Source: Candidatus Bathyarchaeota archaeon (GTDB taxonomy: Archaea; Thermoproteota; Bathyarchaeia; TCS64). From it: 64,000 nucleotides of DNA. The first letter of the stretch is position 1; the number at the start of each line of letters is the position of its first letter. The position numbers were made by a program, and so were the translations under genes. The notes below the pieces were generated by a model that made no database searches, had not been told where the DNA came from, and worked only from the letters and a program-made list of their open reading frames with translations. Shown piece by piece: positions 11,451 to 50,279 of the stretch. Location: positions 320,001 through 384,000 of the forward strand of contig CAVYLP010000004.1 in assembly GCA_963769425.1 (NCBI GenBank), in the 5' to 3' direction.

Positions 11451-11532
11451 GTCGTTCGCCTGGTCGTCGCTTCAGTGATCGGCGTGGTGTTTCTAAACGT
11501 TATTGGGCAGTAGCAAGTTAGCGGCCCAAATT

Positions 11533-11928: not shown

Positions 11929-12012
11929 TGGTATCCATGCAACACCGGGGTTCGGCTCTTTATAGACCCTGCAGTGTATGGACACCTTTAATTTTAGGAG
12001 GGTTAAGTTACA

Positions 12013-30740: not shown

Positions 30741-31108
30741 TTATCAAATAGCTAAGCTCGACGAATGGAGCCTAGCGCTTCCTGCATAGACAAAACGGCC
30801 GATTCCTTATCTCTCCTCAAGCTCACGTACAAGTTCTTCCCTGTTTTTTCAACTCATCTAAGGATCATTTCCGTCCGCCAACTCTTGGGTTCCCAGAGCA
30901 GAGTATGCGCATCTCTTTTCTGCTCCTCGCGGGCTTTTTCTTATCCCTTACCATGAATTATTCTTAGTGCTTTATCTTGGGAATAAATTGAATATATCTC
31001 ACCTTTTTTTTGGATATGATTTTCAAGCTTCCGAATTAAGAACCAACATCTAGTTAGTCGCCCAATCTGATTCGGAAAAATTTATCTTTATCTAGTGTTG
31101 ACGCATGA

Positions 31109-31758
31109 TCAGCCGTGGCCGAGTACTCGCCTCAGGGCGGCGGGCAGCTCTTTCAGATCGATGTCTCCCCTGATGGTCTTGATCTCCCCCCTCTTCTCGT
31201 AGAAGTCGAGGAGGGGTCGTGTCTTCTCCCTGTATACCTCGAGCCTCCGTCCTTATGACCTCGGGCTTGTCGTCGTTCCTCTGAACGAGGGCTGTGGCGC
31301 AGACGTCGCATTTGCCACTCGATCTCGGCGGCTTGTTCTCTAGGTGGAAGATGGCCCCGCACTTTGGGCAGCTCCTCCTCTTGCTTAGCCTGTCGATGAT
31401 GACCTCGTCTTCTAGGTTGACGTGGAGTACGTGGTCGAGTCTTTTCCCTGTCTGCTTTGAGTACATTCTCCAGCGTGTCCGCTTGCCTCGGGCTCCGGGG
31501 ATAGCCGTCTAGAATGAAGCCGTTCGCTGTGTCGGGCTCCCTGAGCCTCTCCGCGACGAGGTCGTTCACAAGGTCGTCGGGAACCAACTCGCCCCGCTCC
31601 ATGTACCCTTTAGCGGTTACTCCAAGCGGCGTCGCCTTGGCAACAGCCGCCCTCAGCATATCCCCCGTTGTGATGACGGGCACGCCATACATCTCACCGA
31701 TGATTTTAGCACATGTCCCCTTGCCGGACCCAGGCGGACCGAGAAGCACGACCCTCAA
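31109..31758 (-). CDS. adk: Adenylate kinase (bacterial type, Zn-lid), with two single-base frameshifts
   Basis: LGPPGSGKGT, TGDMLR, LDGYPR, CPKC...CDVC lid, RNDD and RLEVY motifs; TTG start with GGAGG; frame breaks near 31457 and 31250. Confidence 0.9.
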
Positions 31759-31844
31759 AGAACAGCCTCCAAGAGCACGCAGATACCCGTCCAAGCGATT
31801 ATAACGTTTACGGGGCCCCAAACAAGAAAGAAATTATAATCTGA

Positions 31845-32666: not shown

Positions 32667-33035
32667 ATGAACGGACTAGAATTCGACACGTCACAATCAG
32701 GCTTCAATGCTGTTCTGAAGGACTGGCAGCTCAAGGCTATGAAGGTTGTCTGGGCTTCTCCAGAGGGCGCTAATAGTAGGACGGTTTGGATTAAGGTGAA
32801 CCAAGCTCTTCACGGCGAGACCATCTCTAGAGCCAGCATCATCAACTTCCTCGAGGCGATGCGAGAGATGGGTGTGATCTCGGGTGAGGAGAAGACGGGT
32901 AAGGGTGGCCATCACTGGGTCTACTTCCCTAAGCTGGATGAGACCGGGTTCAAGAAGTATATTGTAGAGAAGATGTTAGAAATCCTGATGCGCGACTTCC
33001 CAGATGAGACTAGGCAGATTATTAAAAAACTTTAA
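32667..33035 (+). CDS. Winged-helix regulator (BlaI/Lrs14/TrmB-like)
   Basis: ISRASIINFLEAM...TGKGGHHWVY wing; paralog at 49908-50279. Confidence 0.85.
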   Translation: MNGLEFDTSQSGFNAVLKDWQLKAMKVVWASPEGANSRTVWIKVNQALHGETISRASIINFLEAMREMGVISGEEKTGKGGHHWVYFPKLDETGFKKYIVEKMLEILMRDFPDETRQIIKKL

Positions 33036-33157
33036 ACCTGAACGGCGCAGAAGCAGAGTACGCCGTGGTCGGATTATTAAGCTCGATCTGCGAGTAACAT
33101 ATCAGGCCTCGCCGAATCGGCAAGGACCCCGGGTCATCGTGAGGTATGGAACAGTCG

Positions 33158-33425
33158 TGGAACTATGGTTGTTGCTCTCGATCACAGTCGTAGTGATACT
33201 CGTCCCCTTCCTCAAGGGCAGGAAGGACAGAAAATTCGCTCGACGAAAGGCGGCGGCTATCATAGCGGCAGCCTGATCTTGTTCGTCCTCAGTGGCCTCT
33301 TTTTAGCAAACATCCTCCTCAATCTCGTCGAGAGCTTCCCATACCAATTAGGTGCAGCCCTGACCTTAATTACCTCCCCGACGCTTATGTTGTCAGGAAT
33401 CGTCACATACATCGCATCTCCATAA
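33158..33425 (+). pseudogene. Small membrane protein split across two frames
   Basis: The hydrophobic segment VELWLLLSITVVVILVPF in one frame is continued by GSLILFVLSGLFL in another. Confidence 0.35.
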
Positions 33426-33712
33426 AAAAAGAAGCCCGATGTTCACATCATCTCGACGATAAAACACAGTGTGAAGAGCCCGCCTTGAATGGTGAGAAAG
33501 GCCTATGTGTTTTTCATAATGAGGCTGGGAAAACATACGCCACTGACATCAGGAGCAGAGTTTTGATCCTTCTTAAAGTACAAAGTTTTGGAGTGAAGGA
33601 TTATAATTTTATAATAATTAGTTAAATATACTAAAAAAAGTAATTAGAAACCGATATATTCTATCATATTTCAGAAGTACATAGCCAGGATATTTAGTCA
33701 CAATATTCCAAG

Positions 33713-34123
33713 ATGGAGAGAATCGACTTGACTTGGGGAAATACTGACAATCTCAAAGATCTAGTTTGGTTATTATGCGACCTACAACCTCATAGTAAAA
33801 CCATTATTAGGCATGGATGGAGAACAGGTCTTCCCCAGGAAAAGGCTCCGATATGGGTTTTTTGCCCTCTTCTAAGATCAAACTTCCCAAGAGATCGAGA
33901 GTTAATCGAAAAATGTGAAAAGTGTTCTCATTGTAAAGGCCTAGGATTTCCCAATAGCGGAGTGGAAGATAACTCGAGAATGACATCGAATCTAAAAACG
34001 ATTAAAAAAGAAACGAGTACTTCTAAAAGAGTATTCAGTAAAGAAGAGCTGGAGAGAGCCGAGCACCTCAGCAAGATAGAAGATCAGGAATGGCTCGATG
34101 AGGAGAAGAAGCTGCAGGGATAA
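33713..34123 (+). CDS. Cys-rich hypothetical protein (possible Zn-binding)
   Basis: FCPLL...KCEKCSHCKG; charged C-terminal helix. Confidence 0.65.
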   Translation: MERIDLTWGNTDNLKDLVWLLCDLQPHSKTIIRHGWRTGLPQEKAPIWVFCPLLRSNFPRDRELIEKCEKCSHCKGLGFPNSGVEDNSRMTSNLKTIKKETSTSKRVFSKEELERAEHLSKIEDQEWLDEEKKLQG

Positions 34124-34209
34124 CTTTTTCATTGCAGCAACGTCAGTGGTTTAATGATTAGAATAATATAACGTAAATTTTCGATAGGCTACAGTCACAT
34201 TTTAATGGA

Positions 34210-34452
34210 TCAAGTTGTCGTAGACTGTTCGCATGGAATTTTCTTAGTAACTCGACTCCTTATTTTGGCGTCCCACTCCTCCATGACACCATAGTCAATC
34301 ATTGTCGTCATACCCGCAATTGCTGCTCTCAAACTGACACCAACCAAGGGTATTTCGGCCACCGTTATAATGAGGTCAGCGTGCAAGATCACTCCTTTTT
34401 CCAGGATCAAATCTAAGAGATCTACCAAAGCTCCTTCTCTTGTAGGCTCCAT
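34210..34452 (-). CDS. gvpM: Gas vesicle protein GvpM
   Basis: MEPT...ADLIITVAEIPLVGVSLRAAIAGMTTMIDYG..EEWD matches haloarchaeal GvpM. Confidence 0.9.
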   Translation of the reverse strand: MEPTREGALVDLLDLILEKGVILHADLIITVAEIPLVGVSLRAAIAGMTTMIDYGVMEEWDAKIRSRVTKKIPCEQSTTT

Positions 34453-34456
34453 GGTT

Positions 34457-36376
34457 TTAGGCCTCCTCCTCGAGTTCTAGCATTAATAGCGCCTCCCTGA
34501 GATGCTTAACCTCAGATTCAACTTTCCTGCCAGATTCTGTCTTAATCTTCCTAATTGAATTCTCAATTAGAGTCCGGTTTTTATTCGACTTACCGCTTGG
34601 AAATCTGAGTGCTGAGGAAGCTAGAAGACTCATACGTTCCACAGTATTCGCCTTTGACTTTGAGACTTCAACTATGTTAGTCAGTGCATCTGATGATTTT
34701 TTCATTTCCTTAATGTTTTCGTTTGTAATGGAGATCTCTAGTCTGCTCATAGCCTCCAAATAACCTATCTTCTCCTTCTCAGTGAGGGATTTTTCTACAT
34801 CCTCGAATAGCCTTTTAGCACCGAATAAAATAGCCTTGGCATTTTCCGCGGATTTAATATCTGCCACTACTTTAGAGTCTGCATCATCGAATTTTGTAGC
34901 CTCGATGATTTTTAAAGCAATTTCACTCTCTGTAATCTCTTTTGCACTTCTGACGGGGACATCATAACATAACCCGGTCGATAGTACCTCAGCGGAGACT
35001 TTGAGGATACCATCCGCGTCGACTTTAAAGGCGACTTCAACCTCCTGTCCAAACCTAGGTGCAGGTGGGATACCATCTATCTTCAGTAATCCCAAAGAGG
35101 TATTGCCACGTGCAACATCCCTCTCACCCTGTAGAACATGGATGATCATTGTTGATTGTTGGTCTTCTTCCGTAGAAAAATTCCGTCTCGCTAACGTCGG
35201 AATAGTTGTGTTTCTCTGGATCAACCTGGTAAATATTCCTCCAGCAGTCTCCACGCCAAGAGAGAGAGGTATAACATCCATTAGTAGCATATCCCTTATC
35301 TCGCCGCTCATGATGATACCCTGTGTTAGGGCTCCCATTGCCACAACGTTCATTGGGTCTATGCCCTCCTCCGCCTCTCTCCCGAAGATCTTGAGGATTT
35401 GTCTACGCACCACTGGCATCTTCGTAGGGCCTCCGACTAGCACCAGCTTGTCGATATCCTCGATAGATAGTGATGAGTCTTCGAGAGCTTGCATGATTGG
35501 CTGACGCAGTCTATTGGTCAACCCAGCAACTAGTAATTCGAGTCTACTACGGGTTAAGACCAATCTTGGTTTTAGTATCTTATCTCCAATAGACAGTATG
35601 GGGGTAACCGTGACTCTCTCAAGACTGGAGAGTTTTATCTTCATTTGTTCCGCTGCATCTCGGAGTGTGTTCAGGCTTTGGGGATCCGAGCTCAAATCTA
35701 TGGAACACTTTCTCTCTATTTCCTTGATGAGGTAGTTGAGGATGGCATCGTCCATATCCTTCCCTCCGAGAACAGTGTCTCCACAGGTTGATCGAACTTT
35801 GAAGATCCCCTGCCTCATCTCCAGTATTGTGATGTCGAAGGTTCCGGCTCCGAGATCGAGCACGGCGATGTCAAGATCTGCGTCTCTTTGGTTAAGGCCG
35901 TAAGCAAGTGCCGCTGCTGTGGGTTCGCTCACGATCCTTAGTACATTGAATCCGGCGAGCTCCCCCGCCTGTCTAGTCGCATTACGCTGACTATTATTGA
36001 AGTAGGCGGGCACCGTGATCACAGCCTGGTTAATTGTCTCCCCGATGAATCTCTCGGAGTCGAGCTTAATCTTCTTCAAGATGAACGAGGAAATTACCTG
36101 TGGCGTATACGATACACCGTCGACATTGAAGGTGTAATCAGAGCCCATTTGTCTCTTGACCCATCGGACGACCCTATCTGAATGAACATTAGAGTATTCT
36201 AGAGCCTTCTTACCCACGACTACTTCGCCGTCCTCTCTAAAGGCTACTGCAGATAGGAACATTTTACCATGAGCAGTCTCCCCATCCTCCGAGGGCACGA
36301 CCCTGATCTTTCCATCCTTTAAAATAGCGGCTGAAGAGTTGCTGGTCCCAAGATCGATACCCAACGTACGTTTCAA
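34457..36376 (-). CDS. dnaK: Hsp70/DnaK paralog inside the gvp operon
   Basis: GIDLGTSNS, TVPAYFN, EPTAAALAYG, DLGAGTFD, LVGGPTKMP, linker MLLMDVIPLSLGVET and substrate-binding-domain RNTTIPT...LQGER. Confidence 0.95.
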   Translation of the reverse strand: MKRTLGIDLGTSNSSAAILKDGKIRVVPSEDGETAHGKMFLSAVAFREDGEVVVGKKALEYSNVHSDRVVRWVKRQMGSDYTFNVDGVSYTPQVISSFILKKIKLDSERFIGETINQAVITVPAYFNNSQRNATRQAGELAGFNVLRIVSEPTAAALAYGLNQRDADLDIAVLDLGAGTFDITILEMRQGIFKVRSTCGDTVLGGKDMDDAILNYLIKEIERKCSIDLSSDPQSLNTLRDAAEQMKIKLSSLERVTVTPILSIGDKILKPRLVLTRSRLELLVAGLTNRLRQPIMQALEDSSLSIEDIDKLVLVGGPTKMPVVRRQILKIFGREAEEGIDPMNVVAMGALTQGIIMSGEIRDMLLMDVIPLSLGVETAGGIFTRLIQRNTTIPTLARRNFSTEEDQQSTMIIHVLQGERDVARGNTSLGLLKIDGIPPAPRFGQEVEVAFKVDADGILKVSAEVLSTGLCYDVPVRSAKEITESEIALKIIEATKFDDADSKVVADIKSAENAKAILFGAKRLFEDVEKSLTEKEKIGYLEAMSRLEISITNENIKEMKKSSDALTNIVEVSKSKANTVERMSLLASSALRFPSGKSNKNRTLIENSIRKIKTESGRKVESEVKHLREALLMLELEEEA

Positions 36377-36387
36377 GCAACTTCACC

Positions 36388-37374
36388 TTAAGATAGGACC
36401 CGACGACCTGCCAGGGAGACGATCAGCCTGTCTTCAACTAGCTGGTCATCGGTATTGCAGGGATAATTCTCGCAGTACTCGACTAAGAGATCTCTAGCGC
36501 TTTTTAGGGCCCTGAACTCGTGTTCAGTATCTGGGCTTGTGTTATCGTCTGGGTGACAAAGCCGAATCAATTTCTTGAAAACGATTTCAACGTCAGATAA
36601 TGAGAAAGGGTCATCTAAACCTAGGAGTTTCTTTGCCTTTGATACCTGCTCGAAACTAACTTTTTTTACACTGAGATTAACGAAATCGTAGGGAGGTAGT
36701 GGTGTAACACATCGGAATTTGAGCACCTCCTGGTAAGCATCTTCCAGTTCATCTATTTTTAAGAGGAAATCGGTTGAATCCCTGTCTTTCACTAGGAATG
36801 AGTTGTTGAAAATCATATCGCTATTTTCAATCTTTCTCTCTTTGCATCCAATCGCTAGGGCATTCAAGGAGTTAAGGATCCCTGGGATCAGCTTCCTCTC
36901 CTCTGACGTGAGAGACTCTTTTATTCTTCGACCTAGCTCAATTTTTAATGCTACGCTATTAGGTGCCTCTTTGAGTTTCTCGAAGGATAACTTCACGTTC
37001 TTCTCATTCATGACGTTGGATAGAACTTGATTATTCCAAGAAACCCTGATATCCACCTGAAATGTTCCCCTTAAACGTTCGATTGTTTCCTTGAAGGGGA
37101 TTAAACCCTGCTTCAAGATGTCTTTGATATCTTTTTCGTTTCTTGCGAATAGCCCAAAACCAACGGGCACCACCGAGCCCTCTTTCATAGCTCGTAAAAT
37201 GACTTTTTCATGTGTCAAAGCATCTACTGGCTTCATTTCTTCCGTGTCAGGAAATTGACTTGATAATATGCAGATTTCTTTAAATGAGATCGTTGAAACC
37301 TCGGCTCCACGAATTCCAATATTTCCTAAGCTGTGATTTCTAGGTTCACTCGCTACACAGTAGATGTAGTTCAT
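36388..37374 (-). CDS. GvpL/GvpF-family protein fused to a C-terminal J-domain
   Basis: YIYCV, HEKVI, VVPVGFG and PLPPYDFV, then AKKLLGL...VFKKLIRLCHPDD...FRALKSARDLL (J-domain with HPD). Confidence 0.88.
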   Translation of the reverse strand: MNYIYCVASEPRNHSLGNIGIRGAEVSTISFKEICILSSQFPDTEEMKPVDALTHEKVILRAMKEGSVVPVGFGLFARNEKDIKDILKQGLIPFKETIERLRGTFQVDIRVSWNNQVLSNVMNEKNVKLSFEKLKEAPNSVALKIELGRRIKESLTSEERKLIPGILNSLNALAIGCKERKIENSDMIFNNSFLVKDRDSTDFLLKIDELEDAYQEVLKFRCVTPLPPYDFVNLSVKKVSFEQVSKAKKLLGLDDPFSLSDVEIVFKKLIRLCHPDDNTSPDTEHEFRALKSARDLLVEYCENYPCNTDDQLVEDRLIVSLAGRRVLS

Positions 37375-38162
37375 TTACCGACCACCCTATCGCTACCAGA
37401 AAAGACAAAGGAGTAGGGTGGCCAAGGGCCAGTGAACTTTACGGTTAAACCATCTTTCTCGATGAAGGTTGAGAGCATTTTTCCGAGAGGCTTGACGTTC
37501 TCCGTATTAACGAGGCATGAAATTTTTAGTATCATTTGGGATTTTTCTTCGAGTGATGGAGTCTCCTGATGAACCTCATCGGAAAAAACCTTAATCTTCT
37601 GAAATTTCTCCTCGGCAATGGCTCGAGCTTCCACCTCCCTGAAGACTCTTGTTTTCTGCTCCAGTTTTTTTTGCAGGAGGTATGATGCACCCTTCGGTTT
37701 ATTCTCTAGAGCTTCCTTGAGAGCAGATACTTCGGGGTGTTTATTGACAAGTTCTCCGAGGACGCCATCATCTATGCTGATCTTAATGCTATACTCCGCT
37801 TTATTTTTGAACGTCTCTAGTAGACTAATCAGTCTGTCATGCTCCTCATTGAGCCAATTAATCACCTCTTCGTCTCCTCCCTTGAAGATTGTGTTAAACT
37901 TCAGGGGAACAACGGTCTCGTAACGATGCATCGCGAGGTCAACGATATTTTGGTGGGACATCACCCACTCTCTCGCAATTTTATCATCAGTGGTATCATA
38001 TGGTTCGGAGCTGCATTGGTGAACGATTCCGCTGATACCGTTGGTCGAGACGGAGTGAACTTGTTGTCCGTTTATTCCAGGGAAACTCAGATCTCTCTCT
38101 TTCGGAATATGATTTGTGACACAGTAGAGATATGTTCCAAGTCCACTGGTCCCATTACCCAA
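37371..38162 (-). CDS. gvpL: Gas vesicle protein GvpL (GvpL/F family)
   Basis: YLYCV, WVMSHQNIVD, VPLKFNTIF, GASYLLQKKLE and FTGPWPPYSF; follows gvpK. Confidence 0.88.
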   Translation of the reverse strand: MGNGTSGLGTYLYCVTNHIPKERDLSFPGINGQQVHSVSTNGISGIVHQCSSEPYDTTDDKIAREWVMSHQNIVDLAMHRYETVVPLKFNTIFKGGDEEVINWLNEEHDRLISLLETFKNKAEYSIKISIDDGVLGELVNKHPEVSALKEALENKPKGASYLLQKKLEQKTRVFREVEARAIAEEKFQKIKVFSDEVHQETPSLEEKSQMILKISCLVNTENVKPLGKMLSTFIEKDGLTVKFTGPWPPYSFVFSGSDRVVGK

Positions 38163-38481
38163 TTTTCCTTACCTCCCTCGAGGATTGAGGATTCACTAAG
38201 TCAATACTGTCTTCAACCAGCTTATTCAGTTCACCGCGGACATTCCTAACGACATCTGTAAGATTATTCTCAATTTTTATCAAATCTATTGCTTTATCTA
38301 ACTCAATTAGACTCAATCCAAGTCTATCTATCTCATCATCAGTTAGCTGTAAACTATCCATTCTCCTTACTGCCTCTTTCTCAAGTACATCTTTTATTAT
38401 CTCTACTAATGCGACAACCAATCCCAGTAGACCGGATTTAAGATTGTCCTCGTCTATTTTAATCATAGTTTTAAGCTCCAC
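38155..38481 (-). CDS. gvpK: Gas vesicle protein GvpK
   Basis: GLLGLVVALVEII.DVLEKEAVRRM...LTDDEIDRLG. Confidence 0.93.
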   Translation of the reverse strand: MELKTMIKIDEDNLKSGLLGLVVALVEIIKDVLEKEAVRRMDSLQLTDDEIDRLGLSLIELDKAIDLIKIENNLTDVVRNVRGELNKLVEDSIDLVNPQSSREVRKIG

Positions 38482-38500
38482 TGTTGATTAAGATTATTTC

Positions 38501-38848
38501 TTACTTCCAAATTTCTTGTTCTTTCCAGCCACACATACATTCATTTTTCTTTAGTGCGTTTTCGAAAATCTTTCCACAGTTGGGGCAAGCCTCTTTAGCT
38601 GCCAAAGCCTTCCAGGCTGGCGCGTTTAGGTTCGTCCCCGAAGGAAATTCGAGGCCGAATTTCGCCGCCGTCTCGAATGAAGCAAGTGCCGCCCTTATCT
38701 TAACTCCTAGAAGCTCCACACCAACGACACTTACCATAATGTCCGCGTTAATTACCAGACCTTTATCGAGGATCATACCGATAGCATCTGCAAGACCCGT
38801 TGGTCCTTCTTTTTCAGGGCTCAGGATTAGTTCATTTGTGTTCATCAA
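38501..38848 (-). CDS. gvpJ: Gas vesicle protein GvpJ with a C-terminal Cys cluster
   Basis: ILDKGLVINADIMVSV..VELLGVKIRAALASFETAAKFGLEFPSG; CPNC...CMC tail. Confidence 0.92.
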   Translation of the reverse strand: MMNTNELILSPEKEGPTGLADAIGMILDKGLVINADIMVSVVGVELLGVKIRAALASFETAAKFGLEFPSGTNLNAPAWKALAAKEACPNCGKIFENALKKNECMCGWKEQEIWK

Positions 38849-38961
38849 TCTCCCTCATCTTATTAACATTAGATTTCTATCTACTCTATCCAAGTCTATA
38901 TCATACTTAAGTAATGCTAAATATTTTGATACGAATTCTGTTTCGAAATTCGAAATATTAA

Positions 38962-39276
38962 CTAATTTACTTTAACGTCGTTATGTATATCGTTAAGAAG
39001 ATTAATTCTTAAAGAGTTTAAATTGTTAAGTTCTTCAATATCTCTTAATTTAAGGTTTAATTCTTTATTTTTTCTTACGTACTCTTCCCTTGTTATTTCT
39101 CCGAGCTCATAAAAGAGGCTATTTTCCTTCAAATTATCAAGTACCCATTTTTTTACTTCCTTTTGATAGGCCTCTTCTGCGTTACTCGAAATGGTTTCCA
39201 TCAACCATATCATGTCAAATGGGGGAAGCGAGAGACCTACAGAGCGTAGCAGAATATCATCTATAAAAAAAACCAT
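38962..39276 (-). CDS. gvpG: Gas vesicle protein GvpG
   Basis: FFIDDIL...LKENSLFYELGEITREEY...L pattern; follows gvpF. Confidence 0.88.
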   Translation of the reverse strand: MVFFIDDILLRSVGLSLPPFDMIWLMETISSNAEEAYQKEVKKWVLDNLKENSLFYELGEITREEYVRKNKELNLKLRDIEELNNLNSLRINLLNDIHNDVKVN

Positions 39277-39288
39277 TCACATCAAGAC

Positions 39289-40095
39289 CTATCGCTTAAA
39301 CTCTATGCCTTCTTTTCCGATCTTGATGTGAATAAAATTATAGGGTGCCCAAGGACCGCTATATAGAAGCTTCACCATCGGATACATCGATCTCAACCGA
39401 GCAACTTCCTCCGAGAACGGGGGTAAACTATCTTTCTTTACCAAGAATGATTCATTGAATAATAACCGGTCACTAAATAATTCACCAGACACCGATTTAA
39501 TTGCCAAACATTTTAGAGGTTCAAGAATTTCAGTAGGTTTTAAATCTTGAGTGTCAGTTAGATCCTTCATAATTACCCCCTTAACTCCTAGCTCAACGCA
39601 ATTCTCGACGGATCTAAGTGCCTCCGTGATGTGGGTACTCGCCTTTTCAAGGAGTTGCTTGAGAACTACTCCAGACTGGAGCACTGTTTCGAACTCGGCT
39701 GGAATAACTGTATTAGATTCCAAGAGAAGTCGAAGTACCTCGTTATGTCTCTTCGCATTCGCTTCAGTGAGCTCATATTCCCCTTTTTCAGTGTCGCTTA
39801 CGACGCCGGCTAAGCCTTCATATTGAATTACATAAACTTCTTCGTCGAGTATACCTATTTTCCCGAAATTCGCTTTTCCGTTATTGAATATTATTGCGTA
39901 GAGGTATTTTCCGGATTGCATATTTCCAACATAGGTTACTTTTGCAGATCGATTTTCTTCATTAATTTTGATATCTGTTATAGTTTCAGTATCAGCAATA
40001 ACTGTTCCCGATTCTTCACTTTTAGGTATTATCTTATAAGCTGTTTGTGTCTCCACCGTTGAGCTCAAAGTGAGTTCATTGTTAGGTTCAATCAA
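39289..40095 (-). CDS. gvpF: Gas vesicle protein GvpF
   Basis: YLYAII, LAGVVSD, HNEVL, TVIPAEF, ELGVK and YSGPWAPYNF. Confidence 0.9.
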   Translation of the reverse strand: MIEPNNELTLSSTVETQTAYKIIPKSEESGTVIADTETITDIKINEENRSAKVTYVGNMQSGKYLYAIIFNNGKANFGKIGILDEEVYVIQYEGLAGVVSDTEKGEYELTEANAKRHNEVLRLLLESNTVIPAEFETVLQSGVVLKQLLEKASTHITEALRSVENCVELGVKGVIMKDLTDTQDLKPTEILEPLKCLAIKSVSGELFSDRLLFNESFLVKKDSLPPFSEEVARLRSMYPMVKLLYSGPWAPYNFIHIKIGKEGIEFKR

Positions 40096-40984
40096 GCCAT
40101 GGATCTCTCCTTCTGTTCGAATTTAGTCTTACTGTGTTGTCAACCAGTTGACCGGCTTCCATTTGAAGGTTCGATCTACTTTGAAGATAATTATTTAACA
40201 TTTTTCGGGCTTGTATTTGGTCAGAGATTAGTTGCTGTATTTCACTCTCGGATTCGCTAGTGGTTTTGTATATCCGCTCCTTTCCCATTCTCATGGAAGA
40301 AAGTAGCCCCTTTTTCTGTAGAGAATCTAGTAGGGGATAGACGGCGCCTGGACTTAGTAGAACATTGAACTCCATATTTATCGTTTTCATTATGTCTAAC
40401 CCAGTCATCATTTTCTCCTGCATTAATGAGAGAATAATTATGTCCAAATTATCTTTCACATTCTTTTTTATGGAGTCATAAGATACCTGAAGCGATTCTA
40501 TAAATTCTCCAGAAATGAGGGCCAGATCGTTCGTCGTTAGCTGTAAGAGAGTGTGAAGTTTGGAGAGTGGTTTGATCATTTGTTCAGATAAGGCGTTTAT
40601 TCGATACGTGCAAAGGCATCTGATGGGATTCTTAGCGATTAATCCGATAATATTCTGTTCTCGCTCCCAGATCTGCTCATATGTCTGACTCGGTAGAGAT
40701 CCTGTATCGATGATTAGACGTATCTTGGTTTTTTTATCTGATTCATCGTTCAGACTATTTAATCCATCGAAGCTAAGGACTTTCAAGTTAACATTGGCTA
40801 AGTCTAATTCGTTTATGATTTTCCCTTGTTCGTCTGATGAAATTATTATTGCATCTTCATCGTCTTCCATAGAATCAAAAAAAGACTTGTGTATTAGTTG
40901 TTTATTCACCTTTGATGAATATAGGTGTAAAATATGCTCTGAAGATTTAGTGTCTATAATACAACTTAAATCATTACTAATCAT
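40088..40984 (-). CDS. MEDS-like sensor domain fused to a PadR-type wHTH (GvpE-like regulator)
   Basis: EHILHLY...WEREQ...CLCTY (MEDS-like) followed by LDIIILSL...LLSPGAVYPLL.SL.KKGLL. Confidence 0.75.
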   Translation of the reverse strand: MISNDLSCIIDTKSSEHILHLYSSKVNKQLIHKSFFDSMEDDEDAIIISSDEQGKIINELDLANVNLKVLSFDGLNSLNDESDKKTKIRLIIDTGSLPSQTYEQIWEREQNIIGLIAKNPIRCLCTYRINALSEQMIKPLSKLHTLLQLTTNDLALISGEFIESLQVSYDSIKKNVKDNLDIIILSLMQEKMMTGLDIMKTINMEFNVLLSPGAVYPLLDSLQKKGLLSSMRMGKERIYKTTSESESEIQQLISDQIQARKMLNNYLQSRSNLQMEAGQLVDNTVRLNSNRRRDPWLD

Positions 40985-41059
40985 ATATATTCATCCATCA
41001 CTAGCAATTGGTTTCTCTTCCTGATATTGAATTATTAACTTTAACATTGTGAAAGTTCT

Positions 41060-41347
41060 TTATCCTGAGTAGTGATCAAAGCGTTTACGGATCAATATCT
41101 GCTTCCAGCCCAAAATCTTGCCACTTGCATTGAAGTTAACCTGGTAACGACTGAGAAGATCTTGAGAGTCGGGCATACCCTTTCTTTCGAGAGCCTCAAC
41201 GATTACGTACCAGCCATCCTTGGACTCCTCGATACTTACAACCGTCTCAGCTTTACGTAGAATCGTATTTTTCACTATATCCATTGCTGACATCACAAAA
41301 AATTCGATTGGGGGAGTATTCTGCATCATAGCTTCGTTACTTGACAA
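41060..41347 (-). CDS. gvpO: Gas vesicle protein GvpO
   Basis: DGWYVIVEALERKGMPDSQDLLSRYQV. Confidence 0.92.
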   Translation of the reverse strand: MSSNEAMMQNTPPIEFFVMSAMDIVKNTILRKAETVVSIEESKDGWYVIVEALERKGMPDSQDLLSRYQVNFNASGKILGWKQILIRKRFDHYSG

Positions 41348-41349
41348 GT

Positions 41350-42363
41350 TTATTGATCCTTCCTGTAGACATCCCTCAATACATCGTCAACTAAGGTGAT
41401 GTACTTCGAATCCGATTCGGGACCTGAGATCTTTGAGGAAAGTACATCGAGGTATATCTGCTGAATGTCCTCGAACTCTCGACTCATCATTACTCTTAGC
41501 CCCCTTCCAACCATTATAGCCGCTCGGGTTCCCGGCTTCGACTCAAGGGGCATTTTATCCCTAATATGCCTCATCGAAGTAACTACTTTTCCCGCGTCTT
41601 CGTCATTAAGCCCAGTGTGCTTCATCACAATATCGAGCTCTGTGGGGAAATCGTAATAGTCCATGTAAATGTGAATCATGCGATCCAGAAGGGCATCTTG
41701 TGGCCTGTGAACACCAGCATACTCGATGGAGTTGCTTGTGAATATTACACTGAAGTTAGGATGCACCTTCACGTAGCGTTGTGCACCAAACATCATTGGA
41801 AGCTCGAGAATGCCCTCTTCGAGGACTGAAAGTAGCACGTTGTTGGCCATCGGCTTTGCTCGAGAAAACTCGTTATAGATTAGAGTGTAGCCATACTTAC
41901 ATGCGATCGTAAGTGGGTTATCCACCCACATGTATTTACTCTTGTCCTTCGCGACGACGACGTTGTGTACGTACCTATCCCTAATTATGGATGTCTCCAT
42001 CTCGGAGTACCCTCCGATCAGGTCTCCAGTTGTCATTTGATCGTCTCCGTTTACCCATAGAATGGGTTGGCCCATTTTCCTGGCTACGGCTAGCGCTAGC
42101 GTCGTCTTCCCACACCCGGTTGGACCTATTAGATGTGGAGAATACCCAACATCGGTCCACTTCACTACTCGCTCAATTATCTTGCTGACTTGTTCTGTCT
42201 CCACGAAATTCTCATTGGCTGGAACCAGAAACTCGAAATCTACTTTATCAATTTTTATAGGTTCTTCGTTTTTCACTCTTTTCTTCTTATCTGAGTGCTC
42301 CTTCATCGTGTCATGTATTTTTGACCCAATCACTCGTCGAGGATGCGCTTCCTTGTAATACAT
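41350..42363 (-). CDS. gvpN: Gas vesicle AAA+ ATPase GvpN
   Basis: HLIGPTGCGKT, VDNPLT, YNEFSR, TSNSIEYAGVH.PQDALLDR. Confidence 0.96.
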   Translation of the reverse strand: MYYKEAHPRRVIGSKIHDTMKEHSDKKKRVKNEEPIKIDKVDFEFLVPANENFVETEQVSKIIERVVKWTDVGYSPHLIGPTGCGKTTLALAVARKMGQPILWVNGDDQMTTGDLIGGYSEMETSIIRDRYVHNVVVAKDKSKYMWVDNPLTIACKYGYTLIYNEFSRAKPMANNVLLSVLEEGILELPMMFGAQRYVKVHPNFSVIFTSNSIEYAGVHRPQDALLDRMIHIYMDYYDFPTELDIVMKHTGLNDEDAGKVVTSMRHIRDKMPLESKPGTRAAIMVGRGLRVMMSREFEDIQQIYLDVLSSKISGPESDSKYITLVDDVLRDVYRKDQ

Positions 42364-42493
42364 TCCTTTCTTATCACCTGAGAATGAGGGCTCCTTAGCC
42401 TTTTTAACTAATATTTAGAAAATAGTTATGAGTATTGAGTCGAGTTTGGAAACATTAACAATAAACGAATAAGTGAAAAAACTAAGAAATAGG

Positions 42494-42652
42494 TTATGTC
42501 GCCTTTTGCTTATTTTCCATATTACTCTTCAGCCATATGGTCCTTACACACTGTGGGCGAGGAACAACTGACATATGTTGAGTCATTTCTCTGAATTTCT
42601 TTGACCAGAGTAACTGTTTTATCCTTTTTGGATTCTTACTTGCTATAGACAT
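42494..42652 (-). CDS. Small basic protein (52 aa), positional GvpI-like candidate
   Basis: Manual translation MSIASKNPKRIKQLLWSKKFREMTQHMSVVPRPQCVRTIWLKSNMENKQKAT; GAAGGT just upstream and a TTATATA box further up. Confidence 0.5.
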   Translation of the reverse strand: MSIASKNPKRIKQLLWSKKFREMTQHMSVVPRPQCVRTIWLKSNMENKQKAT

Positions 42653-42860
42653 ATTTCTTAACCTTCTACACTGAGCTAAAACGATTCTCTGAAAGTATAT
42701 AACAAATATTCAAGGAGATGAAACGTAAATTGTTTCGAATCCGGATGTTCCTTTTGATTAATGATAATGAAGTTTGTTTAAAAGAGTTTTTTTGATAAAT
42801 CTATTGATAAATATAATATGAGTGACAAAGAGCGAGTAAATAGTTTATTTTTTGATATTT

Positions 42861-43574
42861 TTAGATTGTCTTTAACTTTTTTAAAGTTATTTCTAAAATA
42901 CCATTTTCGTATTTCTTTTTAACATCAGTTTTATCGGCTTTTTCAGGGAGGTTTATTTCGATGAGGTTATTGTCATTTAGACCAGTATTTATTTTTAGCT
43001 TATCCCGATCGACTTCGACTGTTATTTTCTTTTCGTCCAAGTTTGGTAGCTCAGCTATTATGGTGATGTAGTCGACATTTTCCGTTATTTCGATTAAGGG
43101 TTCGTTATTATCTAGGGATTTGGGTAAATCTCCGAGTTTTAAGTTGAGGGATGGCTCTTTTCCAGGACGTTTACTGTTAAGACTGCTGTGGCCAACGATA
43201 TGACCTTTCAGAGGTCTGGCGTTTATTTTATATTCGAAGACACCTTTTTTTCCTGCTACCTCAAATTCCTTTTTAACATATTCCGTTTTTTCTGATAGTT
43301 CAGATAATCTGTTAATAATATCTATAAATCCGCCGTTTTTATTATTATCACTCGCCTTTCCAGAAATTCCCATAGTGTTAAAAGTTAAATTGAATAGATC
43401 TGATACCTCATTCACCATTTTCTTTAAATCACTATTTTCATCTACTTGTTTATTTTTTTGCATCTTTTCATTTAATTCTTGTAAGCTTTTTTCAATTTTC
43501 TCGATTTCATTTTTCCTTTGTTTTACTTCTTCCGATAAGTCCTCTATTTTTTTTCTGATGTCATCATTTGACAA
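42861..43574 (-). CDS. Hsp20/alpha-crystallin-domain protein with an N-terminal coiled coil (GvpH-like)
   Basis: EPLIEI...IIAELP...YENGILEITL motif; heptad-rich N-terminus. Confidence 0.8.
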   Translation of the reverse strand: MSNDDIRKKIEDLSEEVKQRKNEIEKIEKSLQELNEKMQKNKQVDENSDLKKMVNEVSDLFNLTFNTMGISGKASDNNKNGGFIDIINRLSELSEKTEYVKKEFEVAGKKGVFEYKINARPLKGHIVGHSSLNSKRPGKEPSLNLKLGDLPKSLDNNEPLIEITENVDYITIIAELPNLDEKKITVEVDRDKLKINTGLNDNNLIEINLPEKADKTDVKKKYENGILEITLKKLKTI

Positions 43575-43589
43575 TTCATTAACACACTC

Positions 43590-43958
43590 TTAGACATTAT
43601 TCGCGTTCAAATTTTTTAATAAATGTATATTTACAAAACTGAATATTCTTTCACTATGTTTTTGATACGAATCATTAATTATATGTACCCTTATTTGACC
43701 TTTCTCAGTGAGAGAATATAATTTTCTTCTATCCATGGAGTTAACTTCTATAAATCCCTCCTTCTCAAGATGATATAGAAGAGGGTACAGAGTCCCTGGG
43801 CTAAGTAAAACGCCGAACGACTTGTGTAATTCTCCGATTAATTTGTATCCGTATATGGGTTCGCCATTCAGCATAGCAAGTACTATTACGTCTAAAAATG
43901 TCTTGATCATGCTGTCGTTTAGTTTTTCCGAAGTATATTCTGGATACATCGTGGTCAT
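43590..43958 (-). CDS. PadR-family regulator (GvpE-like)
   Basis: LDVIVLAML...YGYKLI...LLSPGTLYPLL..LEKEG...RRKLYSLTEKG. Confidence 0.9.
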   Translation of the reverse strand: MTTMYPEYTSEKLNDSMIKTFLDVIVLAMLNGEPIYGYKLIGELHKSFGVLLSPGTLYPLLYHLEKEGFIEVNSMDRRKLYSLTEKGQIRVHIINDSYQKHSERIFSFVNIHLLKNLNANNV

Positions 43959-44125
43959 GGTAGGTACAACAGTTAGTTTGTTATTAAACAGTTATGAATG
44001 CCATATTTATGTAAAATATACATCCAGATGAATTATCAATCTATACAAGAAAATCATGTAAATTAAACATCTATAATAAGGATATTATGTTTAATGATTT
44101 ATAGTATATTTTCTGATTTGATATA

Positions 44126-44157
44126 AGAAACGGATATCTAAATATTGCTTATATAAA
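44126..44157 (+). promoter_or_regulatory. Putative gvpA promoter (TATA box plus upstream motif)
   Basis: TTATATAAA at 44149-44157, preceded by AGAAACGGATAT at 44126-44137. Confidence 0.45.
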
Positions 44158-44235
44158 GAAAGGGAATGTTCTGTGTTTAGGCGAGTCGAGAACGAAGAGT
44201 CGCCGACAAAACAAAAAAAGGAGTAATGAATGAAA

Positions 44236-44460
44236 ATGGTAAGTCAAACCCCAGATGCAAGCAGTCTCGCAGAAGTTATCGACAGGATACTGGACAAAGG
44301 TCTAGTCGTGGACGTATGGGCCAGGGCTTCACTGGTTGGGATAGAGATCCTGACCATCGAGGCTCGCGTGGTCGCAGCCAGCGTTGACACGTTCCTCCAC
44401 TACGCTGAGGAGATGACAAAGGTCGAGCAAGCGGCCATTGCCGTTGCCCCAGCTGCGTAG
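44236..44460 (+). CDS. gvpA: Major gas vesicle structural protein GvpA
   Basis: [51 protein letters not shown]; alternative start at 44230. Confidence 0.98.
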
Positions 44461-44499
44461 AGGATACCTACCACCTACTGACCTCTTCTGTTGAGGTGT

Positions 44500-45015
44500 A
44501 TGACCACGGCCGAATACAATGAAGCCAAAGAAACGTATATCAAGGAGCTAGCAAGCAACAACTCAAGGAAAAAGTTGGATGAGATAGCATCGGCTTTGGA
44601 CCTTGACCCCAAGAAGTACGCGAGCAAGAGGGAGATTGCATTAGCAATCATGCTGGCTGGCAGTCAAGCTCTGTTGTATAGGTCTAACGTCGACACCGCC
44701 GATACAGAAGAGGAAAAAAAGGAGATGAGTAAACAAATGAGTTCCGTGAAAAGCATCAGAAAAGCCATCAACGACGAAGCAGAGAGTTTCATGACATTCT
44801 ATAAGGGCGAGTTTATGACCAACATAGCAGCGTTCCATGATGCCACTCAGATGTTCAGAGAGGACATCAAAAAGCAGGTGAAGGAGAACAACGACTTTGA
44901 TCATGAATTTGGTCAGAGTGTCAAGAAATATCAGGACAGCATAGAAATCTTCAGACGCAGCATACTAGAACAGTCAAAAGAGAACCAAAAATACATCAGA
45001 CAGTTCTACGGCTAA
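44500..45015 (+). CDS. GvpC-like helical repeat protein with an extra N-terminal domain
   Basis: Directly after gvpA; two approximately 32-aa amphipathic repeats (F..............FR..I..Q.KEN..(F/Y)...F); GAGGTG Shine-Dalgarno before ATG 44500. Confidence 0.6.
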   Translation: MTTAEYNEAKETYIKELASNNSRKKLDEIASALDLDPKKYASKREIALAIMLAGSQALLYRSNVDTADTEEEKKEMSKQMSSVKSIRKAINDEAESFMTFYKGEFMTNIAAFHDATQMFREDIKKQVKENNDFDHEFGQSVKKYQDSIEIFRRSILEQSKENQKYIRQFYG

Positions 45016-45020
45016 TAGTC

Positions 45021-45048
45021 TCCCTTTTTTCACTTAATATTTTTCTTT
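45021..45048 (+). terminator. Oligo-T archaeal-type terminator after gvpAC
   Basis: CCCTTTTTT and TTTTTCTTT right after the stop codon. Confidence 0.4.
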
Positions 45049-45067
45049 GAGTAAATTTAACCAGGTA

Positions 45068-45410
45068 ACTAATTCGTATTTTTTTTAATAGTTTAGGAAG
45101 GGGATCAATAATTTATATAATTTAATGTGATTCTTAATAATATCTTTTAATAAGTAAATTTGTTGAATAGTATTGGAAATAATTTCCTTATTGATATTTA
45201 TTTCTTACTATCTTTTCTTATAACCTTAACGATGATTACTACTAATTCGTATTTTTTTTAATAGTTTAGGAAAGGGATCAATAATTTATATAATTTAATG
45301 TGATTCTTATAATATCTTTTAATAAGTAAATTTGTTGAATGGTATTGGAAATAATTTCTTTATTAATATTTATTTATTACTATCTTTTCTTATAACCTTA
45401 ACGATGATTA
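45068..45410. repeat. Tandem duplication, 2 x about 172 bp
   Basis: Copies start ACTAATTCGTATTTT at 45068 and 45241; about 6 differences counted by eye. Confidence 0.95.
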
Positions 45411-45534
45411 TCTCACCTAATTTTAAATTGAGTTCTCTAACGATATTTACAGGTATTGTAATTATTGAGCTAGCACATTGATATCTAACTTTACCTTCGA
45501 ACTTCTTTGAGAATTCATTGATTTCGTTCTCTGT
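45370..45534 (-). pseudogene. AbrB/MazE/SpoVT-like DNA-binding protein lacking an in-frame start
   Basis: Manual translation TENEINEFSKKFEGKVRYQCASSIITIPVNIVRELNLKLGEIIIVKVIRKDSNK*. Confidence 0.7.
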
Positions 45535-45780
45535 TTATAAGAACTGATGTGTGAACCTTAATTTAATATTCTTCGTGGTTTAATAACTCACAATAATTGT
45601 AAAGGCTTTAAATTTACCTCATTTCCACTCTCCCAGTTAATTCTTAGAGCAGGATCGATTGAAACACCATTTAATCTCTTTAACCTCATACATCCGACAA
45701 AACCATGGGAAAGTCTCGCGAGCGAGTTATCAACAGGGAACGGGCACTACTAAATAATTCTCATTGCGCGAAATATTTAA

Positions 45781-46032
45781 TCAACCATTAGCCCAGGTGT
45801 TATTTTTGGCTTTAGCCGCTTTCGCAGGAGCAAAAATCTCACTCTCTATACCAACTAAATGTTTAGCCTCTTGGAAGGAAATCAAGAAATCCTTTCCCTT
45901 CTCAGTGATCATGTAATGCTTCCTCTTCCCTATGCCTTCCTCAGCAGGGGTACGGTACTTCAAAAGTCCCTGATCTAGGGAGTCGTATAAGTGAGAACCT
46001 ACTTGTTTCCAGTTGCAGCTCGCCATGTACAT
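45781..46032 (-). pseudogene. N-terminally truncated archaeal winged-helix regulator
   Basis: MYMASCNW....HL..L...GLL...YMITEKGKDFL. Confidence 0.6.
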
Positions 46033-46406: not shown

Positions 46407-46679
46407 TTAATTGGTTTTTTTGAATCCAATAACTGGATAGAGGTTTTTCAACTCTTTTTCTCTCTCATCTAATTGTTTTTCAATCAGTTCTAATAGTTGT
46501 TCAGGTGAAAATGGTTTTACAATGTACTCGTGTACCCCATAGCGGATAGCCTCCTGAGCGGTCTCAATGGAAGGATAGCCTGTAATGATTAATTTCCGGA
46601 TTACTGGCTTAGTGTCCTCAATAAAACCTATTAATTTTACTCCATCCATATCAGAGAGTTTAACGTCAACAATAATCAA
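46407..46679 (-). pseudogene. Response regulator receiver domain, N-terminally truncated
   Basis: IIVDVKLSDMDG, IITGY and YIVKPF motifs; the first acidic-pocket strand is missing. Confidence 0.75.
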
Positions 46680-47077: not shown

Positions 47078-47621
47078 GTGTCAAAAGATGATAGTAAGGA
47101 TAATTTGCAGACTAAGTAAACTAGTTAGATATTTTAACCGAGATAATATGTAATAGATATCCAATAGATCACACGCCTTATCTTTCACAGTGTCATCAAT
47201 CTAACCATTTAAAAAAATCATTTGATTTCAATCTAAAAAATAGTCTTAACTTCAATACTATACGATATGATACATCGATATACTTTTAAAAAACTACATA
47301 TTCAGATCTGAACGACATTACAGAACGTTAAAAATTCAAAAGTAAAAATTAATCCTCTATCCAACATTTTATTGATAGCTTCTGTCATACTGAATGCCTC
47401 TACGGCGACTTACCGTTTTTTTCATATATATATATTTATTTTTTTCTACGAGCCTTTTTTTGACTCGCTTAAACAAATTATATTATATTTGTTTATGCAC
47501 ATCTGCTATTATCTTGTAACCATATGCAGGTTCGTTTTTTAATATGATGAGAATTATAATATCTAAAAGGGATTTTATAAGTTGGTCGTCGAGGTTTACT
47601 TCGATTCGATTTTGTGGATAT

Positions 47622-47786
47622 AACATTAAAGTAATACACCTTCATTGGAGGCAATGTTAAACTTTAGACACGATCTCCAAGTTAAGAAGCCTCATCCCAA
47701 AAAAAAAAAACATTAACGTAATACACCTTCGTTGTAGGCTATGGTAAACTTTAGCACGCTCTCCACGTTAAGAAACCTGATCCCAA
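47622..47786. repeat. Imperfect tandem repeat, 2 x about 79 bp, separated by an A tract
   Basis: AACATTAA.GTAATACACCTTC...TCCCAA at 47622 and 47709. Confidence 0.9.
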
Positions 47787-49907: not shown

Positions 49908-50279
49908 TTACAATATCTTTGAGATAGCTTTCCTCGTCTCAGCGGGGAAGTTCTCCAATAAGCAAGTCAACATTGTTTCAACTATGTATTTTCTAAATCC
50001 TTCTTCATCCAATGGAGGGTGATAGACGTAGTGATGACCACCTTTACCGGTCGCGTCATCCCCTCGTATTACCAACATTTCACGCATTGCTTCAAGGAAA
50101 TTGATGATGCTCGCTTTACTGATAGGTTCATTATTGAGGGCCTTGACCACGGAGTTCCAGACAGTACTGCTGGATACTCCCTCGGGATGACTCCAAACCA
50201 CCTTTATCGTCTCAAGTTGCCAGTCCTTGATGACCGCAAGGAAGCCGATCCGAGACGTATCGAATTCGATTTCGTTCAT
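49908..50279 (-). CDS. Winged-helix regulator (BlaI/Lrs14/TrmB-like), paralog of 32667-33035
   Basis: ISKASIINFLEAMREM...TGKGGHHYVY. Confidence 0.85.
   Translation of the reverse strand: MNEIEFDTSRIGFLAVIKDWQLETIKVVWSHPEGVSSSTVWNSVVKALNNEPISKASIINFLEAMREMLVIRGDDATGKGGHHYVYHPPLDEEGFRKYIVETMLTCLLENFPAETRKAISKIL

Follow-up and report, generated by a model that had tools for sequence, protein, structure and literature searches.

A J-domain fused to a GvpF/L protein and its neighbouring Hsp70 as a putative dedicated chaperone pair in gas-vesicle gene clusters of Bathyarchaeia

The window analysed here, the whole 64,000-nucleotide stretch C4:320001-384000, comes from a genome of the class Bathyarchaeia (2.55 Mb in 6 contigs, 91% complete) and carries a complete gas-vesicle (gvp) accessory operon on its minus strand, with gvpA divergent on the plus strand. 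Among the accessory genes are those of a GvpF/L::J-domain fusion, hereafter FJ, and of an adjacent full-length Hsp70, and these two proteins are the subject of this study. The minus-strand order is PadR, Hsp20, GvpN, GvpO, MEDS-like/PadR, GvpF, GvpG, GvpJ, GvpK, GvpL, FJ, Hsp70 and GvpM. In window coordinates, the genes and the matches that identify their products are as follows.

43590-43958, minus strand: PadR-family regulator (Pfam PadR, 56.5 bits)
42861-43574, minus strand: small heat-shock protein (Hsp20) with an N-terminal coiled-coil-like extension (Pfam HSP20, 22.4 bits; NCBIfam archaeal Hsp20, 59.4 bits, below its cut-off of 140)
41350-42363, minus strand: GvpN, an AAA+ ATPase (Pfam AAA_5, 68.6 bits; homologs 55-88% identical in related clusters)
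41060-41347, minus strand: GvpO (Pfam GvpO, 55.9 bits)
40088-40984, minus strand: MEDS-like plus PadR regulator (Pfam PadR, 34.7 bits; MEDS match weak)
39289-40095, minus strand: GvpF (Pfam GvpL_GvpF, 129.6 bits)
38962-39276, minus strand: GvpG (Pfam GvpG, 32.1 bits)
38501-38848, minus strand: GvpJ-like protein of the GvpA family with a Cys-rich C-terminus (Pfam Gas_vesicle, 49.1 bits)
38155-38481, minus strand: GvpK (Pfam GvpK, 63.1 bits)
37371-38162, minus strand: GvpL (Pfam GvpL_GvpF, 201.3 bits)
36388-37374, minus strand: FJ, 328 amino acids (Pfam GvpL_GvpF, 154.3 bits, and DnaJ, 26.4 bits)
34457-36376, minus strand: gvp-type Hsp70, full-length, 639 amino acids (PF00012, 528.1 bits)
34210-34452, minus strand: GvpM, a hydrophobic protein of the GvpA family (Pfam Gas_vesicle, 52 bits)
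44230-44460, plus strand: GvpA, divergent from the accessory genes (Pfam Gas_vesicle, 46.8 bits)

The FJ start overlaps the 3' end of the GvpL gene by 4 bp, the Hsp70 gene begins 11 bp past the FJ stop with a TTG start codon and a GGTGA upstream of it, and the GvpM start follows the Hsp70 stop by 4 bp. These coordinates agree with the spacings of -4, 11 and 4 bp given in an earlier note made from the sequence alone. That note had also described a third GvpL/F paralog with a C-terminal J-domain and the string LIRLCHPDD; the string is present in the FJ translation, both Pfam domains are matched, and FJ joins the genes at 39289-40095 and 37371-38162 as the third GvpL/F paralog of the window.

FJ consists of a GvpF/L domain (residues ~1-238), a J-domain and a conserved YCENYPC tail. 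The GvpL_GvpF match (PF06386, 154.3 bits) spans residues 3-233, and the DnaJ match (PF00226) spans residues 249-297 and scores 26.4 bits in hmmscan and 28.4 bits in the genome search, against a Pfam cut-off of 27.8, with FJ orthologs reaching 44-58 bits. An AlphaFold model (predicted local distance difference test score 92.2, predicted template-modelling score 0.83) places the J-domain helices at residues 241-250, 259-273 and 281-303, and the His-Pro-Asp (HPD) motif at 274-276 in the loop that joins helix II to helix III. In Foldseek comparisons of this model, the N-terminal 238 residues match the GvpF structures 6L5D and 4QSG (E-values of 1e-14, the best being 1.3e-14 for 6l5d_B; template-modelling scores of 0.75-0.80 normalised to the target), and the C-terminal part matches many solved J-domains, among them the DnaK-bound 5nro_B (5NRO; root-mean-square deviation 1.9 over 58 columns). 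By its PF06386 match and its fold, FJ thus belongs to the GvpF/GvpL family, albeit not as an equivalog of either protein, with 79.9 bits against a cut-off of 350 for NF052351 and 26.5 bits against 200 for NF045778. The HPD motif is kept in all 93 loci whose FJ spans it and does not vary across 32 diverse FJ proteins that were aligned. Close relatives of FJ are few: a word-indexed protein database contains five full-length proteins at 73-100% identity, the window's own included.

The Hsp70 of the cluster belongs to the Hsp70 superfamily by its full-length PF00012 match, its ATPase catalytic residues and its linker, MLLMD. It is not the housekeeping DnaK of its genome. A separate grpE-dnaK-dnaJ operon lies at C4:155187-158038, ~200 kb away, and its DnaK is 43% identical to the gvp-type Hsp70 (246/571 positions) in an alignment reaching only as far as residue 570 of 639. 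With the DnaK equivalog models NF001413 and TIGR02350, the housekeeping copy reaches 822.9 and 812.9 bits, respectively, compared with 576.4 bits (cut-off 648) and 566.7 bits (cut-off 822.55) for the gvp-type protein. Together with its placement in a separate clade (below), these results rule out the possibility, raised in the earlier note, that the cluster carries the only, housekeeping dnaK. The sole GrpE of the genome (C4:157586-158038) and the sole full DnaJ (C4:155187-155372) belong to the distant operon and neither was found within the window, in line with the note's remark that both are missing nearby. The HscA models are likewise missed by a wide distance (449.2 bits against 708.55 for TIGR01991; 438.1 against 620 for NF003520), and the Pfam annotation of the window contains no isc genes near the gvp-type Hsp70.

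The pairing of FJ with this Hsp70 is conserved across Bathyarchaeia-type clusters. GTDB species-representative genomes were scanned with peptide patterns drawn from the FJ alignment and specific to Bathyarchaeia-type FJ, which yielded 14 FJ loci, 13 of them labelled Bathyarchaeia or Bathyarchaeota (BA2 included) and one Micrarchaeota. At all 14, an Hsp70 48-81% identical to that of the window starts 14-46 bp past the FJ match, inside a full gvp cluster. This adjacency holds despite a differing position of GvpM, which follows Hsp70 in six loci, lies between gvpL and FJ in seven and was not seen in one. Metagenomic contigs gave the same picture: of 80 FJ loci, 18 have Hsp70 directly downstream, and these are all of the Bathyarchaeia cluster type, in which every locus with room downstream (18/18) shows the adjacency. 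One of the genome loci, L026 (JBDRKD010000015.1), is a Bathyarchaeia-type gvp cluster with FJ-Hsp70 in a metagenome-assembled genome labelled Candidatus Micrarchaeota, which could be a case of mis-binning or of gene transfer.

Occurrence of the Hsp70 also follows that of gas-vesicle genes. GvpL/F was detected in 6 of 401 sampled Bathyarchaeia genomes (G000, G002, G039, G199, G229 and G357), each with three GvpL/F paralogs, one of which has 328-340 amino acids and a J-domain. When the same 401 genomes were searched with the window Hsp70, the six best matches fell in exactly these six genomes (49-100% identity, aligned to residue ~632 or beyond); the seventh-best was 46% identical and aligned to ~570 only, and the gvp type is absent from the 395 genomes in which no GvpL/F was detected. 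The two proteins are therefore encoded jointly, as a conserved unit restricted to the gvp-positive genomes among those sampled, and the conserved linkage for which the earlier note had proposed a neighbourhood search is found in the 14 genome loci, the 18 metagenome loci and all six gvp-positive genomes. Among 401 sampled Thermoproteota genomes, five outside the class have GvpF/L proteins that match residues 2 to ~233 and have no J part, and in these five no Hsp70 was found either close to the gvp locus or elsewhere on its contig.

Phylogenetic analysis places the gvp-linked Hsp70s in a lineage of their own, as a DnaK tree suggested in the earlier note was meant to decide. In a quick maximum-likelihood tree of 54 Hsp70s, with E. 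coli proteins as the sole bacterial references and support given only by the Shimodaira-Hasegawa-like approximate likelihood-ratio test, 28 gvp-linked Hsp70s and 14 close database matches of unknown context form one clade (support 100, stem length 0.73). Six Bathyarchaeia housekeeping copies form a separate clade (support 99), which is sister to the first with support 90. Neither of the two takes in DnaK, HscA or HscC of E. coli or the three Hsp70s that come from other FJ clusters. Because the sister relationship has a support of only 90 and bacteria are thinly sampled, we draw no conclusion as to whether the gvp type arose by duplication or by transfer.

The 42 sequences of the gvp clade were aligned to E. 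coli DnaK, with residue numbers and roles in what follows being those of the E. coli protein. The catalytic and J-domain-contact residues D8, K70, E171, D194, T199, D201 and R167 are kept in 100% of them, and the linker is hydrophobic throughout, MLL(L/M)D, which agrees with the earlier claim of a kept ATPase and linker. Changes are found in the substrate cleft: M404 is replaced by S or A, A429E occurs in 83%, V436M in 100% and T437M in at least 90%, changes that remodel the cleft at its arch and central pocket. N170S is present in 98%. The divergent lid and tail noted earlier correspond to the end of the alignment with the housekeeping copy at residue 570; the last ~70 residues align within the gvp clade and not with housekeeping DnaK, and L626, E628, L633 and E634 are near-invariant. 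Both proteins are under purifying selection. For one pair of genomes, the window's and G002, at a synonymous divergence of ~0.9, the ratio of nonsynonymous to synonymous substitution rates is 0.13 for FJ (0.15 for the J-domain plus tail) and 0.12 for the Hsp70 (0.10 in the nucleotide-binding domain, 0.08 in the linker plus substrate-binding subdomain beta, and 0.21 in the lid and tail).

In some hosts the cluster holds the entire Hsp70 system. G039 (100% complete, 1% contamination) and G042 (the BA2 genome, for which quality figures were not given) have neither GrpE nor any Hsp70 or J-domain besides those of the cluster, and in G002 (69% complete) the gvp copy is the sole Hsp70 found. Six genomes (G000, G041, G043, G199, G229 and G357) contain both the cluster copy and a complete grpE-dnaK-dnaJ operon, and the cluster Hsp70 is therefore not merely a substitute for a missing DnaK. 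The pair is therefore self-sufficient in some hosts, and in others it is retained beside the canonical system.

FJ and its adjacent Hsp70 are best read as a dedicated co-chaperone/chaperone pair of the Bathyarchaeia-type gas-vesicle cluster, a reading to which we assign a probability of about 0.72. It rests jointly on their strict pairing, on co-occurrence with gvp genes that is exclusive, on an Hsp70 clade apart whose cleft is remodelled, on purifying selection and on the Hsp70-less hosts. In the proposed mechanism, the GvpF/L domain of FJ would bind a GvpA-family protein (GvpA, GvpJ or GvpM) or the growing vesicle, and the J-domain would dock through its HPD loop on the ATP-bound gvp-type Hsp70 and trigger ATP hydrolysis. 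The Hsp70, with its remodelled cleft, would then clamp an exposed client segment, so that the client stays soluble and is passed on for insertion; misassembled or collapsed shell protein might be cleared likewise, and client release would be independent of GrpE. The GvpF/L part is assigned the role of bringing a GvpA-family client because plain GvpF and GvpL bind such proteins in the systems studied: in PMC11445434, GvpF is presented as the primary partner of the shell protein, chaperone-like in its binding, and GvpL as interacting with GvpJ, GvpS and GvpK. A complex prediction with Hsp70 residues 1-530, ATP and FJ residues 236-328 gave a score of 0.00 against a mark of 0.32, which we count as evidence neither way. 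The earlier note had proposed that the fusion tethers a dedicated Hsp70 to the assembly site. Its dedicated Hsp70 stands in so far as the protein is not the housekeeping copy, the linkage is conserved and the clade is separate; a physical contact between the J-domain and the Hsp70 and stimulation by it, the identity of the clients and the stage of action (assembly or clearance) are, like GrpE independence, matters that we infer from the sequences.

Several observations weigh against a dedicated pair. The J-domain of the window scores 26.4 bits in hmmscan, slightly below the Pfam cut-off, and the closest database relatives of the window FJ, P0002 and P0003 (89% identical), carry HTD in place of HPD. 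These two are near-identical metagenome proteins, and DnaJ is missing from the Pfam matches precomputed for them; their sublineage may have a weakened J function, or HTD may be a sequencing error. The gvp-type Hsp70 of locus L031 (genome G043) is split by a frameshift, with three TGA codons reported inside; it lies in two frames at 10992-12897 with a break at ~11638, in a genome that has an intact housekeeping dnaK, and the split reflects either decay or a (long-read) assembly error. As the sole Hsp70 of G039 and G042, the cluster copy may have a general chaperone role there. Furthermore, the scan of genome contigs relied on patterns of Bathyarchaeia-type FJ and is no census, and the genomes compared are related and so do not constitute independent samples. 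Finally, FJ is followed by no Hsp70 in 45 of the 80 metagenome loci although the sequence continues for at least 300 bp beyond it (for at least 2.5 kb in 26 of them and at least 8 kb in 11), and FJ therefore does not generally depend on a cluster-encoded Hsp70. Another 13 of the 80 are too short or truncated to judge.

The pair could instead act mainly after assembly, on vesicles that have collapsed or been misassembled, by extracting their GvpA-family protein or disaggregating it so that it is recycled or detoxified. This we consider unlikely, though it is the best placed of the alternatives. Small heat-shock proteins partner Hsp70 in aggregate handling, and the cluster also encodes an Hsp20. 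The clearance reading keeps some weight because, according to a preprint on Dolichospermum, dnaK, clpB and a J-protein are induced after vesicle collapse (bioRxiv 10.64898/2026.05.31.729101). No ClpB-type disaggregase was seen in the Pfam annotation of the cluster, however, and the GvpF and GvpL relatives of FJ are described in PMC11445434 as acting early, on unassembled GvpA, GvpJ and GvpM. Sequence data do not separate clearance from assembly, be it nucleation or growth.

Somewhat less probable still is that the cluster Hsp70 serves general purposes, moving with the gvp island and supplying bulk Hsp70 function to hosts that lack it, with FJ as its only J-protein and no special tie to gas vesicles. 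Such hosts do exist: at E <= 1e-30, Hsp70 was found in 293 of the 401 sampled Bathyarchaeia genomes and in none of the other 108, and G039 and G042 are cases in point. The cluster also lies in a low-G+C island. But the sole J-domain accompanying this Hsp70 is fused to a gas-vesicle domain at every locus examined, and a bulk supplier fits poorly with the absence of the gvp type from the 395 genomes without detected GvpL/F, with its retention beside a complete canonical operon in six genomes and with the consistent changes in its substrate cleft. That the pair is regulatory, controlling the activity or stability of the MEDS-like/PadR or PadR protein as DnaK does that of sigma-32 or HspR and thereby tuning gvp expression, is highly improbable: two PadR-type regulators are conserved in the cluster, and an Hsp70 adjoins a histidine kinase/response regulator pair in bacterial-type FJ clusters, but the FJ-Hsp70 unit, flanked by GvpL and GvpM, is embedded in structural and assembly genes, and its J-domain is fused to GvpF/L, whose studied relatives bind structural Gvps and not regulators (PMC11445434).

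FJ itself extends well beyond Bathyarchaeia. Run exhaustively over 1.84 billion representative proteins, a profile search returned 328 sequences at E <= 1e-30. Among the best 149 of these, 130 have HPD beyond residue 220 and 6 more are fragments with HPD in the tail, while 9 are plain or truncated GvpF/L proteins without the J part and 4 have a J-like tail without HPD. Two named bacteria are represented, a Chloroflexi metagenome-assembled genome and Octadecabacter arcticus 238, whose plasmid pOA238_160 encodes WP_015497776.1 with GvpL_GvpF and DnaJ (28.0 bits) domains and the motif SHPD; no Hsp70 is annotated in or beside its gvp cluster. FJ is thus widespread in gvp clusters, usually without a linked Hsp70, and the earlier note's expectation that the fusion would have precedent and the embedded Hsp70 would be the unusual part has been confirmed. 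The FJ-bearing clusters without a linked Hsp70 are probably bacterial, and in these the host DnaK would be the partner.

Four FJ clusters that are not of the Bathyarchaeia type, all among the 80 metagenome loci, have an Hsp70 at the cluster end, 5-9.5 kb downstream of FJ: L106 (16060-19844), L073 (9009-11369), L121 (19980-20993) and L067 (16040-16645). In L121 the Hsp70 starts 23 bp past a GvpM fusion gene, in L067 it follows GvpM and a 97-amino-acid open reading frame (ORF), and in L106 and L073 GvpM is followed downstream by a histidine kinase paired with a response regulator and then by the Hsp70. These proteins were considered as further members of the archaeal gvp-type clade and rejected, since the three placed in the tree (L067, L106 and L121, two of them partial; L073 was not placed) group apart on long branches with support 88. 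GvpM with a C-terminal extension and weak PH, GRAM or Vps36-like matches was observed at L017 (8704-9300), L106 (14921-16030) and L121 (18842-19957), the extended protein having 198 amino acids in G039 and 369-371 in two other metagenome FJ clusters.

Comparison with known systems brings out what is shared and what is particular. The closest parallel is HscA/HscB of the isc operon (E. coli b2526/b2527), a specialised Hsp70 encoded beside a dedicated J-protein in the operon of the pathway that it serves. HscA/HscB works without GrpE, and similarly the gvp pair occurs in two genomes without any GrpE. Unlike HscA, the gvp-type Hsp70 scores below the HscA cut-offs and stands apart from E. coli HscA in the tree, and the client-binding part of FJ is a GvpF/L domain in place of the HscB C-domain. 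HscC/DjlC (E. coli b0650/b0649) is likewise a second, divergent Hsp70 encoded beside its own J-protein, but HscC is very distant and long-branched in the tree and its neighbourhood is unconnected to a structural organelle. The gvp-type Hsp70 is closer to DnaK than to HscA or HscC. It shares with the DnaK of the DnaK-DnaJ-GrpE system the fold, the domain order, the catalytic residues, R167 and the hydrophobic linker, and it differs in its sub-equivalog scores, its separate long-stemmed clade, its altered arch and pocket, its clade-specific last ~70 residues and in having neither a class A/B DnaJ partner nor an adjacent grpE. FJ resembles GvpF/GvpL (the Anabaena and Microcystis GvpF structures 6L5D and 4QSG; the GvpF/L proteins of Halobacterium and B. 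megaterium) in the GvpF fold of its N-terminal 238 residues, and departs from them by its added J-domain and conserved tail and by scores far below the equivalog cut-offs. The Octadecabacter FJ likewise combines GvpL_GvpF with an HPD-bearing DnaJ domain in a gvp cluster with GvpN and Hsp20; in contrast to the Bathyarchaeia loci it has no Hsp70 annotated nearby, and its record is named only 'GvpL/GvpF family gas vesicle protein'.

The surroundings of the cluster bear on its origin. A low-G+C stretch (window 32000-56000) surrounds it, at 0.32-0.50 compared with 0.58-0.63 in the upstream flank, and of 17 other genomes in the genus only 1 has GvpL/F, which gives the region the appearance of an island acquired horizontally. 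An adenylate-kinase-like gene (31092-31821, minus strand), situated where the low-G+C region has its edge, is split across two overlapping frames, with the P-loop N-terminal half in 31153-31821 and the zinc-finger C-terminal half in 31092-31466, as the result of a frameshift or an assembly error. Two winged-helix-like paralogs of 122 and 123 amino acids, 65% identical, flank the gvp cluster in opposite orientation (32667-33035, plus strand; 49908-50279, minus strand). Between 45015 and 48890 lie ~3.9 kb of AT-rich DNA with no ORF of at least 110 amino acids, containing gene remnants (a truncated response-regulator receiver at 46407-46679 and a PadR N-terminal fragment at 47483-47626); a 172-bp tandem duplication, with copies 96-99% identical, occupies 45068-45410.

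Within the cluster, the MEDS-like/PadR fusion (40088-40984, minus strand) is present in the Bathyarchaeia-type gvp loci that extend that far upstream and is, on this sequence evidence, a candidate cluster regulator in place of haloarchaeal GvpD/GvpE. Directly 3' of gvpA, a 174-amino-acid ORF (44491-45015, plus strand) has no Pfam or NCBIfam match and has weak homologs (27-33% identity) in the same position in L022, L024 and L055; it may encode a GvpC-like outer protein. An Rfam scan of 30000-57000 gave no match. Across 33000-46000, a sigma-70 consensus scan counted 38 promoter-like sites, where 31.4 +/- 6.0 were expected, and 7 terminator-like sites were found where 9.6 were expected; these scans are uninformative, and the sigma-70 consensus is unsuited to an archaeon. 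Sequencing runs matching window positions 34210-38162 comprised 15 of DNA type, with shares of at most 0.23, and no RNA runs were listed.

In the openly accessible literature searched, we found no description of an Hsp70 or J-domain encoded in a gvp cluster; none appears in the accessible portions of PMC10972752, PMC9258230, PMC7554672, PMC2405808, PMC4046663, PMC12848028, PMC3646047, PMC11445434 and bioRxiv 10.64898/2026.05.31.729101. The Octadecabacter genome paper lists gvpLF homologs without mention of a J-domain in its accessible text, and its Supplementary Figure S4C of the cluster might annotate the fusion (PMC3646047). That an Hsp70 specialises and shares the operon of its client with a J-protein of its own is known from HscA/HscB; as far as this search extends, the gas-vesicle client system is new, and so is the architecture of the fusion.

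How the very hydrophobic GvpA-family proteins stay soluble and enter the growing gas-filled shell is an open question in the field, and accessory proteins such as GvpF have been termed chaperone-like only loosely (PMC11445434). A conserved GvpF/L::J-domain fusion offers a direct connection, open to testing, from gas-vesicle assembly to the Hsp70 machinery. More tentatively, and with somewhat less than even confidence, FJ proteins may form a large class of J-domain co-chaperones, of which we saw no description in the papers searched, that in many bacteria and archaea connect gas-vesicle assembly to ATP-driven Hsp70. For FJ-type clusters, Hsp70 would in that case be an assembly factor that is required but has been overlooked, with bacteria using the host DnaK or a cluster-end Hsp70, and the Bathyarchaeia-type island would bring its own GrpE-independent Hsp70, its cleft tuned to GvpA-family proteins, and would work even in Hsp70-less hosts. 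In Bathyarchaeia, where FJ is always paired with its own Hsp70, the system is minimal, with one J-protein, one Hsp70, no exchange factor and few candidate clients. Where gvp clusters do not work in foreign hosts or prove toxic to them, these findings suggest a possible reason; they also suggest that co-expression of FJ with a matching Hsp70 could aid engineered gas vesicles. They also reveal that there are Bathyarchaeia genomes whose sole Hsp70 system sits in an organelle gene cluster.

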